Origin: Neodothiora populina
Lineage: Eukaryota
Length of the DNA: 64,000 nt
Reading direction: 5' to 3'
NCBI RefSeq assembly: GCF_041146345.1
Contig: NW_027191413.1
Span: forward strand, 2,852,001-2,916,000
The notes beneath the pieces are model-generated. The model saw only the letters and a program-made list of their open reading frames with translations, was not told where the DNA came from and ran no database searches. Position 1 is the first letter of the stretch; each line of letters starts with the position of its first letter. The translations under genes were made by a program, and so were the position numbers. This document shows positions 23,163 through 43,369 of this stretch, one piece after another.

Positions 23163-24764
23163 TCAATCAATTTGCCATTCATGAAGATATGTCTCTATTA
23201 GATGGCTAATTATCGCTCCTACAGCCTTTTTTACCTCAGATTTCTGCTGTTTTGTGGCTTTCTGTACCTCACGAGCTTCTTGTTCAAGCTTTGCCTTCCG
23301 AATGTCCTCAATATTCGCAAAACGCGTATTTGGATCAACTATTACTCGTCTACGTAATCCTGAAGAAGCTTGTTGTAGTTGTGAGCCTTGTGTCTGTATT
23401 CGCTGTTGAAGAATAGCTTGCGTCGTCGTCAACTGAGAGATTGCTTTACCAGCTTTTTGTAGAATCAATCTCATGTCTCTTTCAGTCGCTCGATCTGCCT
23501 TCCAGCTCTTTCGTAAGCTCTGTACGCTACGATACAATTGTTGTGAGCTCTTTGGAGTACAAATAGCAGGCTCAAGAGTCTGTATCTTGTCTGGAGGTGT
23601 AATTGGACGAATAGGTTGTTGCTTGACTTGTGACGACGTCAATACCTTGTCTGGATTCCATGGAGAGAGCCCTGCTGCCTTCCAGCCACTTCGAATAACT
23701 CTTTCTGTCAATGCCTGACGTCGTGCGAGGCTATAGCATTGGATAAACCGTTGTTTCTTAACTGGTGCTGCGTCGTCGAGGTGAGAGAGCTCAGAAATGC
23801 CTTTTCGATACGCGTGCTTCAACGGAGAGAATACTCCAAGATCCAATGGTTGTAAGACATGAGAGGTATGAGCTGGAAGGAATACGCAGTAGACTTGGTT
23901 TGTTCTACAAGTCCAGAGAAAGTCGATATCAATATGACTTCCGTGTCCATCCATAAGCAAGATTCGCGTAGATGGTGTCGCTGGAGTTGTCTGAGGGAGA
24001 AACACGTATCGCAGCCAGTTAATTGCAATATTATTCGACGTCCAGCCATTCTCAGAGGTTGTATACGTCCAGTCTAGACAATCCTCTTCAAACCAGCTGC
24101 TCTGTGGCTCTTTGCCTTTGAAGATAATCAAGGGCTTAATTGCTTGTCCAGTCATTGATATTGCCTCGAGAATAGATACCCATTCTCGCGTCTGTGGACT
24201 CTTGACATAAGTACGTCGCTTTGTAGAGGCAGCAAGTACTTGGGAATTGGTGCACACACCTAATGCGATTCCATGCTCATCCATATTCCAGATATTCTCG
24301 CGTTGTACTTGGTATTCTTGTTCGATTTGCTTGAATCGGTCGAAGAAGTCCTGGATTGCTGTCTGCGAGGTGCCATTGATTCTACAGGCCTCAATTCTAC
24401 GGCCTATAATAGAGGCGACGCGTGGATTCCGCTTGATGAACTTTGTAATCCATTGAGTACCTAAGGGTTTGGTGTCACCACAGAGGCGAAGCACGCGAAT
24501 AGCCATATCGCGAGCACGTAGATGCGAGGGTGGATATCCTTGCTGATCTTGCTCCAGGATCCAGTCTACAAGGAAGGCCTCTTGATCTGGAGCCAATCTC
24601 TGTAATTGTTCTCGACTTGCTCGTCGAGTAGTGCCGCCGTCGCGTCTACGACTAAGGGTGGTATATGGTACGCCGAATTCACGCGCAACACCTTTCATTG
24701 ATTTTTCAGGGTGCTTTTTGAGTTCTTTGAGAGCAAGTTGAAGCATAGCCTCGCGTTGATCCAT
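23163..24764 (-). CDS. Pogo/Fot1-type DDE transposase (HTH-psq, CENP-B-type HTH, DDE_1), 533 aa
   Basis: N-terminal HTH (VAREFGVPYTTLSRR), second HTH (QEAFLVDWIL...LGTQWITKFIKRNP) and catalytic motifs WNMDEHG, LLMDGHGSH and LQPLDLGVF. There are 35 residues between the second and third Asp (DD35D). No stops or frameshifts. Confidence 0.97.
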   Translation of the reverse strand: MDQREAMLQLALKELKKHPEKSMKGVAREFGVPYTTLSRRRDGGTTRRASREQLQRLAPDQEAFLVDWILEQDQQGYPPSHLRARDMAIRVLRLCGDTKPLGTQWITKFIKRNPRVASIIGRRIEACRINGTSQTAIQDFFDRFKQIEQEYQVQRENIWNMDEHGIALGVCTNSQVLAASTKRRTYVKSPQTREWVSILEAISMTGQAIKPLIIFKGKEPQSSWFEEDCLDWTYTTSENGWTSNNIAINWLRYVFLPQTTPATPSTRILLMDGHGSHIDIDFLWTCRTNQVYCVFLPAHTSHVLQPLDLGVFSPLKHAYRKGISELSHLDDAAPVKKQRFIQCYSLARRQALTERVIRSGWKAAGLSPWNPDKVLTSSQVKQQPIRPITPPDKIQTLEPAICTPKSSQQLYRSVQSLRKSWKADRATERDMRLILQKAGKAISQLTTTQAILQQRIQTQGSQLQQASSGLRRRVIVDPNTRFANIEDIRKAKLEQEAREVQKATKQQKSEVKKAVGAIISHLIETYLHEWQID

Positions 24765-24832
24765 TGTAATTACGTAGTTGTGGTATAGAAAGTAGATAAT
24801 AGACAGAAAGTATGGTAGAACACGCGACGCGA

Positions 24833-24876
24833 AAGCGATCCACTATGGGTACGATCCGTTATGGGGTAGACGAGCT
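24833..24876 (-). repeat. Right terminal inverted repeat (44 bp)
   Basis: Exact inverted copy of 23071-23114, followed by TA. Confidence 0.97.
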
Positions 24877-25192: not shown

Positions 25193-26201
<1,009 letters not shown>

Positions 26202-38212: not shown

Positions 38213-39871
38213 ATGGCCTACGACGAGGAAAAAGGCTATAACCATGGCCAGCCTGAGGTTGCGCCAACGTACGATGCTGGCTTGAACAATGATACCAAGG
38301 CAGCTGATCAATCGGCATTCGATGCTGGTTCTGACAACAGCGCTGGTGTCTATGATGAAAAGGCGTCTACTGGCGTCCTTGGAAAGTTGCGATCTTTTGA
38401 GTTGACGCTCGATCGCAAACTCGGTATTGAGTCACATGCCGTCAACCGAGTCCTGCCAGAAGAGAAGTTCCCACAGCCATGGCATCAGCAGGCTACCATG
38501 GCCCTGCTCTGGGCAGGTGGTACCATGAACATTTCTTGCATGTCTACTGGCTTCTTGGGTTGGAAGTTTGGTCTCGACCTGAGCCAGAGTATCGCCATCA
38601 CGGTCATGGGTACTCTTCTTGGTGCGATGGTCTCTGGATGGTATCTTCATGTCCATGTATGATCAATCTTCGAGTCTTTTGTTAATCTTCTTATCAGGTG
38701 TGCCACCCTTGGCCCAAGCACTGGTCTCAGACAAATGTCTATCGCCCGTTACAGTTTTGGATGGTATCCTACAAAGATTGTAGCCGCCTTGAACGTCATC
38801 TCCCAAATCGGATGGAGTAGTGTCGGCTGCATCACTGGTGGTTCTGCTCTTTCTGCTGTGTCTGATGGCCGAGTAAGCTCAATCCTCGGAATCGTCATTA
38901 TTGCCGTGGGCAGTTCCATCGTCAACCTTTTCGGTCTCCGAGCAATCCTTTACTACGAGAAGTATGCTTGGGCTGTCTTTTTCATTGTGTTCATGGTCAT
39001 GTACGGGGAGATGGCGCCCAAGGCAGACATCATGACCAAAACCGAGCTCAAGGGCGCCGATCTGAGCGGACAAGTCCTTTCTCTGCTCGCCGTTGTGTAC
39101 GGGTCCAGCGTCTCCTGGTGTTCTATCGCCGCAGATTACTACGTCCAGTACCCTGTCACCACTTCCAAGGTCAAGGTGTTTACCCTCACGACTTTCGGTA
39201 TCACCATTTCCACGTGCATTGGCATGGTTCTTGGTTGCTGTATTGGATCCGCGCTTGGCACTCACCCCGAGCTTGCCGATGTCTATAGAGACGAGGGTGT
39301 CGGTTTCCTCATCCAGAAGATGATGTTCCCCCGCGGTTTCGCCAAGTTTATTCTTGTCATTCTCGTCCTTGCAGGTATCGGCATGAACTGCATCAACCTG
39401 TACTCTTGCGCGCTTTCGGTGCAGCAGTTCGCGCGTCCTCTTGCTCGCATTCCTCGCTTCATCTGGACCATTGTGCTGTTCGGCGTCGTGGTTGGAATCG
39501 GTGCCGGTGGTCGCGATCACCTAAGCGAATATCTCGAGAACTTCCTCTCACTGCTCGGCTACTGGGGAACCTCGTTCTTCGCAATCCTCTGGATCGAGCA
39601 CTACGTCTTCCGCAAGGGAAAGACGGAGAATTACGACCTCGACGGCTGGAACGATCCCAAGCGCCTACCCCACGGTCTTGCTGCGCTGGTCGCTTTCTTG
39701 GTCGGTGTCGTGGGCTGGTGCATGGGAATGGTCGAGACGTGGTTCACTGGACCCATTGGCGCGCTGATCGGCAGCGGAGGCGGTGATATCGCCAACGAAC
39801 TCACACTTGGATTCACTATTATCTTGTACCTGCCACTGAGATGGTTGGAGCTCAAGTATATTGGAAAGTAA
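38213..39871 (+). CDS. NCS1-family purine-cytosine/pyridoxine permease (Fcy2/Tpn1-like), 2 exons
   Basis: About 12 hydrophobic segments. Intron 38641-38697 gives GW/CATLGPSTGLRQMSIARYSFGW. Further motifs are GWSSVGCITGG, SWCSIAADYYV, NLYSCALSVQ and LENFLSLLGYW. Confidence 0.92.
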
Positions 39872-40123: not shown

Positions 40124-41826
40124 CTAGCCAGAATCATCACCACCATCCAACATCTTCCGAATCGCCCCAATCTTATCCTCAATAACCTGCGCACTATCCG
40201 CCTCCTCAGCAAGACTGACCCTAAGACTCAACGCCGCCTCAGCAACATTAATGCTCGCCGTCTTGGCCGTCGTAGCCTCAACAACCACATCCATAGCGGC
40301 CGCGTACCTGTCCCAAAACTCGGTCGTCTGGTTCATGTAATTCGTCTGCTCGAGCGGCAGCGTCCAGATATGCGAGTAGTGCTTGGCGGCCTCGACGGTA
40401 TCTCCCCACGCGCGCGTGCGGTTCTGGAATTCCGCCGCAGAGAGGGTAGACGAGGCGTTCAGCGAGCCGTACTGCAGCACCCATTCTTTCTCGATCAGAT
40501 CCATCCAGTCGCTCATGAGGGCCGAGCGCACGTCCCTTGCGGTGCCGGGACAATGAACCAACATGTCGCCTCTGCGACCCTCGTAGAAATGCCGCATCGC
40601 GAGCCCCGGGTAGTCAACTACGAGCTCGTCGAAGTGCGCCGCGCGGAAGTCTTCGCCTCCCATGGCCATTTCGTACGTGTTGAACCAGGTCCGCGGCATG
40701 TAGACCACGCCGCTTTTCCAGCCGAGGTCGCGGTGGCCGCCGGAGGGTCGCGCGAAGGTCAGGCGCATGCCTTCCTGCTCGACGTTGCCACCGAGGTCGA
40801 TCTCGGAGTGGCAGAGGGGAAAGGACATTGCTGAGGTCAGCATGGAGACTGACCAGGGGTGGACTCGGAGGAAGAAGACGCCGTTGTTCAGGCCGTTCCA
40901 GTCGCGTGTGCCAACGAAGTGCACGTGGGGGATGCTGGGTGGTGGGAGGAAGATGGAGAGTGGGATGTTGGGGTTGAGGATTATCGAGTCGGCGTCGGAC
41001 CACCTGGGGTGTTTTTAGTCTACATGTTCTGGCTGTGGTTCTGAGGGTTGATTCTGGGAGACGGGGAATGAAAATGGGAGAAGACTCACATCAGCCACTC
41101 GGCTCTCTCGTCGACGTCCTTTTGTAGTTCCAACCCAAGTACAGACATGAGATAGACGAGTTTCGTCCAGAAGCCACAACCCTCGTCTTTGCGCAAAGCA
41201 TAGAACTCGTAACCCCATCTCTGTGCGTGACGACGTTGGGACTCCAAAGCGCGCTCATATGCTTCATTGGGCTCGCCGAACAGCATCGATACTTTTGCTA
41301 TCCGGTTGTAGGCTGGGTTAGGGGGCGCGATGAGAGACAAGGACGAATGAGCGGAAGTGGTGGAGGAAGAGGATGAATATGCAGAAAAGGCGAGCTTGAA
41401 GATGGTCATGCATATCAGAAGGACTATGACTGCTGTAAAAATGCTACTTGTGCGCTGGATTTGGATTCAGTGTCCATCTGAGCGACGTGGGGGACTACCA
41501 GACTTACTGCAGATAGTCAGTATTGCTCACGCAAAAAGACTGCGCTAGTAAGTGACGATCTCACCTCTTGGTCTTCTGATTCCAGCAGCCCATCCTCTCA
41601 TCCAGTCAGCCCATGTGACTGCATATCGCTGGACATACGCCCGATAGCCAGGACGATGTTCGTTTTCGTGGTCGTAATTTCTATCGTGCTGGACAAGTTC
41701 GTGGGTAGTGTTTGTTCTATCCGTTTCAGCCTTGCTCGCTGTGTTCACGGCAGCCTCATCTGCACTCCCGTAAAGAGTGCCGGAGTTTTCTTCCGTCGGA
41801 ACAGCTTGATATCGTGGTCCTGCCAT
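40124..41826 (-). CDS. Glycosyltransferase family 34 (Mnn10/Gma12-like) type II membrane protein
   Basis: Motifs AKVSMLFG...YERAL...HAQRWGY, WTKLVYL, EWLMWSDADSIILNP (DxD), DWNGLNNGVFFLRV, EQEGM, PRTWFNTY and GDMLVHCPG. Exons are 41826-41566, 41454-41090 and 41003-40124. The first intervening sequence appears to be a twin intron. Confidence 0.88.
41455..41565 (-). other. Candidate [D1,2] spliceosomal twin intron (stwintron)
   Basis: Minus strand reads AGA | G [GTGAGA...ACTGAC...CTGCAG] TAAGTC...ACTGAA...ATCCAG | CGC. Removing the 58-nt internal intron (41564-41507) creates the donor GTAAGT of a 53-nt external intron, and removing that restores the frame. Confidence 0.7.
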
Positions 41827-43369
41827 CGAGGATCATTTGATCAATGAGAGATTGGCTTCCAGATAGCAAGACTAGATGAATGGAGACGAGGAAAATATGG
41901 CAGAAGATACATGCAAGACTGGACATGTAAATCCTGATGGACGGAAGCTCTACCCTTTGCCAGGATAGAAACCACAGGGGCCATTCTCGAGCGGTGAACC
42001 GGCGTAGGAGACACAACTCAAGATCGCGTGCAAGCCCAAGCTGGAATGGAAACCAATACTTGAGACATACTGTTGATGATCCCTTGCATATCGTAACGTT
42101 TCTATATCGGATGGATGAGAAGATATGGTCTGCAGGATATAACGAGGAATGCATGTAGCCAAAGGTAGCTATACGACACAGGGGAAAAGTCTCATCAGTC
42201 AACCATTTTAGGAAGATACCAGTGGGAACAGTCGACCGTCAATAATGCAAGACAGGCTCCAACATCTGCCGGTCTCTAGACGTGAGTGCAACATGTGCGG
42301 TATCACGGAAACAGAGAATATAGCATTGCCAGCGCCATCGGACGAGATGCGTGTCGATCCTTGATCTTGCCCATGGGATGTCTTGCCCTCTCCTGCAAGG
42401 ACTTTGTGATTAAGGGTGCAAGATATCGTATTGCCATCAGAAAGGTAGAGGAGCCCAAACGAGCTATAGGTAACTGGTAGTGTTTTGTAGTACTCGTGTC
42501 AAGCCATATGAGCCCGACGCAAGAAGCTTCATTCCTTATTGATCCGCAAATCGCGCAATACGCAACTTGTTTCCCTCGGCGAGGAAGTGAATACCCAACG
42601 CTATAGTGTGAAGGATGTGGTGTTGCAGCAACACGAAATGAGGAATGCAAATCTTACCCAAGGAATGCGCAAATGCTCCTCACCCACCGACTCCTCACTT
42701 CCCGAATCCCTCGCTTCAGCCCCACACACAAAACTCACCCCTTTACCTCTCCCTCGAGTGGTGTGGAGCGGGCGTGATATCCAACACGGCATGGCCCTCG
42801 TGGTCGCACCCTGGAGAGAACCTCAGACTACAGTATCCAGGGACGACAGAGAGGGGGAGAGAAGCATCTCAGGCACATACACAAGCGTACTTCCTCGCCT
42901 TGCCTCTATCTCCGCTATTTACTCAATAGCATATATCCTTCTGCATATCTCCACGAGGATATATACCCTATAGCTATAATTTGAGATCCTCGAGCAGGCC
43001 GACCTAGTCAGTTTCTTGGACTGGAGACACGGTGTGCTCCACAGTGCCAGCGATGTCGTCGCTTTGCCAGGCCATGATTGGCGGTAGTATGCTGACGATT
43101 GTTGTCCAGGTTTGCAAGCTAGTAGCAGTAAGGGACACTCTGTCGAACGCACGCGTGGAATAATTGACGAAGGAAGGCGCGGGAATTGGCAACAGGCTCT
43201 TCACTTGATTGAGTAAGCTCAATTGGAAATTAGTATGGTGAACTCATAGTAACATGAAACACACCACAACAACCAGCAAAAGAGCCAACCACAACCATCT
43301 GGATGCAGAAAAAGGGTAATTGATACAGAAGAAAAGAAAGACAAAAAAGAAATAGTCACAAGATGTCAA

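Follow-up and report, generated by a model that had tools for sequence, protein, structure and literature searches.

The 64,000-nucleotide (nt) stretch of Neodothiora populina DNA analyzed here (contig NW_027191413.1 of assembly GCF_041146345.1, positions 2,852,001 to 2,916,000; hereafter the window, whose own numbering is used throughout) carries a three-exon glycosyltransferase gene on its minus strand, at 40124-41826. The first intervening position of this gene, 111 nt at 41565-41455, holds a candidate [D1,2] spliceosomal twin intron (stwintron), i.e., a single G, a complete internal U2 intron and the remainder of the donor of an external intron. The coding part of exon 1 (41566-41826) would run from ATG 41826 to ..GIRRPR over 87 codons, within an 89-codon open frame upstream of the junction, and is predicted to encode a cytosolic tail with a basic cluster. 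Leaving aside its disputed first 22 nt, exon 2 (41090-41432) encodes the membrane anchor AVIVLLICMTIF.., a Ser-rich stem and the start of the catalytic region as far as ..RAEWL plus the bases AT, and is 60-73% identical to open reading frame (ORF) pieces of relatives. It is followed by intron 2 (41004-41089; 86 nt, phase 2; GTGAGT..ACTAAA, 7 nt, CAG) and by exon 3 (40124-41003, including the stop codon), to which frame and homology assign the GT34 catalytic part and the C-terminal region. The junction WLM/WSDAD across intron 2 (a slash marks splice junctions throughout) agrees with the continuous orthologue proteins, and the same site is also occupied by an intron in two Aureobasidium-like orthologous loci, L001 and L002.

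Judged by homology, the gene is a divergent member of GT34 (Pfam PF05637, the GMA12/MNN10 family), and the preliminary description of this DNA, which had been made from the sequence alone, was right in that assignment. As a single-exon query, exon 3 scored 19.8 bits against PF05637, below the 23-bit cut-off, which is exceeded by the relatives P0139 (29.5 bits) and P0007 (43.7 bits); PF05637 was precomputed for most of the 124 homologues in the search. Among named full-length homologues, the closest come from Aureobasidium, with 488-498 amino acids (aa) and 48-54% identity, while ORF pieces reached up to 70-78% and one of their clusters contains a Delphinella strobiligena protein. Like other GT34 members, the protein has an N-terminal tail, a single anchor and, within ..WSDADS.., a D-A-D motif, which we take to be the DxD motif. 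It differs from them in a long C-terminal extension, and its enzymatic activity is putative. The closest named relative, P0139 (NCBI, D. strobiligena), is a 385-aa model that begins at a Met within the anchor and lacks the cytosolic tail; this public model is probably truncated at its N-terminus.

On the minus strand, exon 1 ends with ATC AGA AGA CCA AGA (41580-41566), followed by the lone G at 41565. The proposed internal intron (41507-41564; 58 nt) consists of GTGAGA, 37 nt, ACTGAC (41521-41516), 6 nt and CAG, and matches motifs 1-3 of search model A (PMC9024468). The rest of the proposed external intron (41455-41506; 52 nt, or 53 nt with G 41565) consists of TAAGT, 30 nt, ACTGAA (41471-41466), 8 nt and CAG. 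The next 22 nt (41433-41454) would be coding if the twin intron is removed, specifying RTSSIFT and the first base of an Ala codon, and would be intronic if a canonical 132-nt intron with the acceptor TTTTTACAG ending at 41433 is used instead. The exon-2 frame opens directly after the TGA at 41469-41467, which the preliminary description had also placed just upstream of the anchor-coding frame. On re-reading the minus strand, all coordinates and letters of that description proved correct, as did the joining of G 41565 to TAAGT into the donor GTAAGT once the 58-nt intron is removed. Its exclusions of partial routes likewise hold: removal of the internal intron alone runs into a stop codon after ..PRVSLVV..LQQS, splicing of GTGAGA straight to 41455 gives ..PRAHK and a stop, and an [A2,3] route is unavailable because it needs a G after the distal AG, where the base is C.

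Enumeration of all GT/GC..AG pairs of the region left, weak donors within exon 1 aside, two main routes and a third one from GTATGT 41638 that is taken up below. Removal of the 111-nt twin intron (41565-41455) yields a stop-free, in-frame product of 501 aa that reads RRPR/RTSSIFTAVIVLL; the predicted mature junction is CCAAGA/CGCACA and the intermediate CCAAGAG/TAAGTCTGG. A single canonical GT-AG intron of 132 nt (41564-41433), with minor variants that use acceptors 41430 or 41424, gives RRPR/AVIVLL across the junction ..CCAAGAG/CAGTCATAG.., is likewise in frame, as had been stated beforehand, and yields 494 aa. The two products differ by the seven residues RTSSIFT, and type II topology is expected of both, with a single hydrophobic stretch after the basic cluster. 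Models with two introns and a micro-exon between them were discarded, as no donor with G at position 5 lies between 41506 and 41455 except the rebuilt GTAAGT.

We hold, with little more than even confidence and from the sequence only, that the 111 nt constitute a [D1,2] stwintron. Each step of the mechanism is inferred from the sequence. The compact 58-nt internal intron (GTGAGA..ACTGAC..CAG) would be spliced out first, which would join G 41565 to TAAGT and create the consensus donor GTAAGT. A second U2 reaction would then take out the 53-nt external intron, with the branch point ACTGAA and the acceptor CAG 41455, so that exons 1 and 2 would be fused in phase 0 to give RRPR/RTSSIFTAVIVLLICMTIF.. 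in a type II membrane protein of 501 aa. The 5' part of the element (G+GTGAGA, ACTGAC, CAG+TAAGT) fits the strict published model. Specifically, G 41565 followed by a full U2 donor (GTNNGN) makes up the 5' hybrid motif, GTGAGA being one of the 24 donors of model A (PMC9024468), the internal intron is 58 nt long with ACTGAC 6 nt before CAG, where the model asks for at least 42 nt and DYTRAY 4-20/24 nt before HAG, and CAG/TAAGT is a 3' hybrid motif of the form HAG + URWGY. The external intron, at 53 nt with an 8-nt spacing and CAG, where the model asks for at least 42 nt and DYTRAY 4-24 nt before HAG, departs from the model at one base, as ACTGAA has A where DYTRAY has Y.

The published [D1,2] pattern had a single match on both strands of the 64-kb window, at 41565. 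In 200 Markov-simulated windows, matches averaged 0.08 per window for the strict pattern and 0.255 when the external branch point was relaxed. The only other relaxed match in the window that is flanked on either side by an open frame (88 and 70 codons, phase 0) lies at 2128-1920 on the minus strand (G+GTATGC..CTTGAT..TAG/TAAGA..TCTGAA..CAG); it is probably an ordinary intron, as several canonical introns that are in frame can be drawn from its donor. We also shuffled the 132-nt intron internally, with both ends fixed. The combination of nested branch point, HAG and donor remainder arose in 0.17% of 200,000 mononucleotide and 0.42% of 50,000 dinucleotide shuffles, and with exactly TAAGT as the remainder these figures fell to 0.005 and 0.012%, respectively.

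The rival that has to be set against the stwintron is that removal of the canonical 132-nt intron (GTGAGA 41564, acceptor TTTTTACAG 41433, phase 1, RRPR/AVIVLL.., 494 aa) is the productive splicing event and that the nested CAG/TAAGT is a chance decoy, with both routes possibly operating side by side; we regard this explanation as possible and somewhat doubtful. The 132-nt intron is stop-free and in frame, has a T-rich tract ahead of its acceptor and is the model to be expected from a gene finder, and nested patterns do occur by chance, at 0.2-0.4% per intron. Its donor, however, must ignore a consensus ACTGAC-6 nt-CAG whose branch point lies 37 nt downstream, and transcripts that had already lost the 58-nt intron would lead nowhere without a further round of splicing. 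Its acceptor lies 30 nt past the non-consensus ACTGAA, which is outside the 4-24 nt that the stwintron authors give as their working range between branch point and acceptor (PMC5587772) and unlike the 7 and 9 nt found in the window. It also passes over three AGs, at 41455, 41447 and 41444, all between ACTGAA and 41433.

The 7 and 9 nt come from a sample of two, the other introns that could be placed in the window: intron 2 of the same gene (ACTAAA) and an intron with GTTGAC. The latter is a 63-nt intron of a short-chain dehydrogenase gene (25440-25502, plus strand; GTATGA..GTTGAC, 9 nt, CAG), which was located by Pfam profile coordinates and was the one further intron usable in such a placement, the permease and WD40 junctions being ambiguous. 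A window-wide census of introns that would join ORFs was abandoned as too noisy, with 1342 candidates in 171 groups. Because ACTAAA serves as the branch point in intron 2, a non-pyrimidine last branch-point base appears to be tolerated in this genome, which softens the formal objection to the external ACTGAA.

The anchor bears on the choice between the two routes as well. Splicing by the 132-nt route retains a hydrophobic anchor (AVIVLLICMTIFKLAF) of 16-19 residues after the basic cluster, and its hydrophobic run of 17 residues is close to those of the orthologous locus L003 (16) and of Aureobasidium (19). The anchor expected from the twin intron, IFTAVIVLLICMTIF, has a Kyte-Doolittle mean of 2.96, compared with 2.70 for the best 15-mer of the 132-nt product. 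The uninterrupted hydrophobic core before the anchor Lys would comprise 15 residues after removal of the twin intron and 12 after removal of the 132-nt intron, which counts against the latter. In the ORF pieces of relatives, this Lys is aligned with Asn and polar residues follow soon after; the core therefore probably extends toward the N-terminus, as it would with the twin intron. We consider this argument, drawn from aligned sequences, moderate at best. The preliminary description had gone further, with the stwintron controlling the membrane anchor and possibly acting as an on/off switch. That claim is unsupported, as both routes keep the tail, the basic cluster and the anchor, and failure of the second step would leave a truncated frame in the way of any unspliced intron.

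Orthologues were sought in a metagenome scan that returned 78 loci, the nearest five of which (L001-L005) are orthologues with 52-54% identity. A search of genome contigs gave only one spurious bacterial match (L079), and a search of viral contigs gave none. The preliminary description had suggested an alignment of orthologous genes to look for a conserved G-GT...AG-TAAGT arrangement, and these loci do not have it: L001 and L002, the two Aureobasidium-like loci that have this region, read uninterrupted through ..QSRKSQYTLAICL.., the frame is open across ..HIS[Q/H]RTRRFLLAC.. in L003 and L004, and L005 lacks the region. With no intron at this position in the former pair and an open frame in the latter, conservation cannot vouch for the intron, which weighs against a stwintron here. 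From these alignments, the intron position is lineage-specific and absent from the Aureobasidium-like orthologues. As species-specific stwintrons have been described (PMC12403724), conservation among orthologues was treated as a supportive and not a defining criterion. The Aureobasidium-like orthologues have a canonical intron elsewhere, some 20 codons before the anchor, at 554-613 in L001 (60 nt, phase 1) and at about 3500-3535 in L002, in addition to the WIM/W intron. The near-identical L003 and L004 differ by G or T before ..RTRRF.. (at about 3620 and 2320, respectively), which gives Gln or His. The G of L003 forms an acceptor-like CAG, yet the frame is open in both loci, so the stretch is argued to be coding.

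Spacing in the orthologues was equally indecisive. By MAFFT and BLASTP, the distance between the basic cluster and the far end of the hydrophobic run is 3-4 residues longer in the twin-intron product than in the orthologues, whereas in the 132-nt product it is approximately that of L003 and 2-4 residues shorter than in Aureobasidium. Read from these alignments, orthologue spacing is ambiguous, lying between the two models and separating neither, and the stwintron gains nothing from it. For the same reason, the PRRT shared with P0007, at one point taken as strong support for the twin-intron junction, was downgraded. In favor of the twin intron, the ORF piece P0136 stays open upstream of the position of the 132-nt acceptor for a further two residues, M-T, which align with F-T of the window. 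When the exon-2 frame was compared with L003 by local BLASTP, the alignment reached through QRT.., with a 4-residue gap, and was not counted for either model. The start of P0139 inside the anchor fits an annotation that failed to join the exons and is in this way a weak hint of the twin intron, although such a start may have other causes.

Several further observations also weigh against the stwintron. The external ACTGAA fails DYTRAY at its last base, and the strict pattern can be completed solely by moving the 3' end to TCTGAT..AAG 41395, at the cost of the anchor. Full removal of the 111 nt is not the sole way to restore the reading frame, as the canonical 132-nt alternative, with its T-rich tract before ACAG, restores it as well. 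No homologue of exon 1 was found by word search or by phmmer among 1.84 billion representatives, and BLASTP of exon 1 against the N-terminus of L003 was not significant (E 8.7); a likeness seen there by eye (P..RY.A...EE, ELVQ) is accordingly not claimed. With no homologue of exon 1 to go by, the open frame is what links it to exon 2. An out-of-frame ATG lies at 41834-41836 on the minus strand, 10 nt upstream of the presumed start at 41826; by manual reading, it opens a frame of about 27 codons that overlaps this start. A search of sequencing runs listed no RNA run for the locus. It gave one run (0.05 share of words), probably of DNA, with a single 170-nt contig on 41761-41900 and nothing at the intron site.

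Some of these observations raise the question of whether the locus has been misread altogether. An assembly error of one base may be present at the GG in AGAGGTGAG, in which case the true structure would be a plain 110-nt phase-0 GT-AG intron to 41455; or the gene may be decaying; or exon 1 may lie outside the mRNA, with a start farther downstream, e.g., at ATG 41409. The missing exon 1 homologue and the out-of-frame ATG are compatible with such a misreading, as is the only run found, whose contig ends short of the site, and the start of P0139 at a Met in the anchor is compatible with a downstream start. We nevertheless consider the whole group of explanations unlikely. The open frame of 89 codons reaches precisely to the splice motif and agrees with the frame of exon 2, the exons of the catalytic part are conserved and intact, and GG is not a homopolymer run of the indel-prone kind. 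In the full-length Aureobasidium orthologues, too, a cytosolic tail is present along with a basic cluster and an anchor, and a start at 41409 would lose the anchor.

A different canonical intron, from GTATGT 41638 to AAG 41447 or TAG 41444 (192 or 195 nt), is in frame and stop-free and has a good donor hexamer. It would remove 24 residues, including the basic RRPR cluster, the counterpart of which precedes the anchor in 4/4 Aureobasidium proteins. We rate this route as very improbable because the basic cluster is deleted; it also skips CAG 41455 and would be long for an intron of the window. Taken together, the [D1,2] stwintron is the better supported of the two in-frame routes. The anatomy of 41565-41455 fits a stwintron, and the interpretation given in the preliminary description is supported in part. 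What probability remains after these two models is shared among an assembly error, some other 5' structure and the use of another donor.

The candidate was also compared with known stwintrons. The [D1,2] type, which the preliminary description had called rare, is the commonest stwintron type: a single Hypoxylon genome has 117, and the Hypoxylaceae as a whole more than 1500 (PMC9024468); its rarity holds only outside the Hypoxylaceae. In 14 Xylariales, 288 sequence-similar stwintrons have been described, typically at species-specific positions (PMC12403724). Verified stwintrons are also known from Aspergillus and Trichoderma (PMC5639578; PMC5587772), and a text search found that some of the stwintron literature mentions Dothideomycetes. 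No paper pairing "stwintron" with "glycosyltransferase" was found in a literature search that had subscription papers outside its scope. In lipS of A. nidulans, automatic annotation had an intron of 289 nt begin at the internal donor, whereas cDNA revealed a 99-nt [D1,2] stwintron (PMC5639578), and the authors of the lipS work state that automatic annotation of [D1,2] stwintrons is always wrong (PMC5587772).

The candidate resembles the [D1,2] stwintrons of Pezizomycotina (lipS of A. nidulans and A. niger, and the unique ones of Hypoxylon sp. CO27-5) in several respects. These include the order of G, complete internal U2 intron and URWGY remainder, a short spacing between branch point and acceptor, a frame restored after two excisions, and a longer canonical intron from the internal donor as the mis-annotation to be expected. 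The internal and external introns of lipS are about 50-60 nt each, 53+46 and 52+57 (PMC5639578), and those proposed here are 58+53. The known examples differ in having been verified with cDNA, whereas the candidate comes from sequence, carries an external ACTGAA that is not DYTRAY, coexists with a canonical in-frame route and is not conserved in orthologues of 52-54% identity. Its host also differs, being a Dothideales-like fungus, and so does its gene, a GT34 gene. With the "sister" stwintrons of Hypoxylaceae and Xylariaceae, it shares the [D1,2] type and a new lineage-specific position (PMC8469720; PMC12403724). Unlike them, it has no second copy in the window by blastn-short, no terminal inverted repeat and no unusual fold (z-score 0.04). 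Given that it is unique in the window and ordinary in fold, it would belong to the uniquely occurring sort. The DHA1 antiporter gene, with an alternatively spliced [D1,2]/[A2,3] stwintron, resembles the present locus in having two overlapping removals with 5' borders 1 nt apart (here 41565 and 41564; PMC5587772), and differs in that the 132-nt alternative is an ordinary canonical intron with another acceptor, whose protein lacks seven residues.

Two other genes of the window should be noted. A permease gene of the nucleobase/cytosine-purine family (PF02133, E 2.6e-15) at 38663-39868 on the plus strand is convergent with the GT34 gene, the stop codons of the two being about 250 nt apart. At 23166-24842 on the minus strand, an uninterrupted frame of 559 codons with DDE_1 (E 8e-36) and Tc5 helix-turn-helix domains looks like an intact pogo/Tc5-like DNA transposase.

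One further scenario can be envisaged, which we consider quite improbable. The locus could harbor a young lineage-specific [D1,2] stwintron at a new intron position, its internal donor being shared by a canonical intron that competes with it; the pair would be a live intermediate between stwintron and canonical intron with a 1-nt shift of the 5' border. Two GT34 isoforms would then be made that differ by RTSSIFT in the juxtamembrane/anchor segment. Anchor length influences Golgi retention, and the choice of splice route could tune the residence of the enzyme.

The stwintron proposed here opens no new question, as the way such elements are spliced, the patterns for finding them and a protocol for verifying them have already been published. 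If it is real, it would place a [D1,2] stwintron beyond the Xylariales and Aspergillus that dominate the literature, at a position that lacks an intron in the Aureobasidium orthologues. Standard gene models of this GT34 gene would then be wrong by construction, losing either seven residues or, as the truncated Delphinella model hints, the whole N-terminus.

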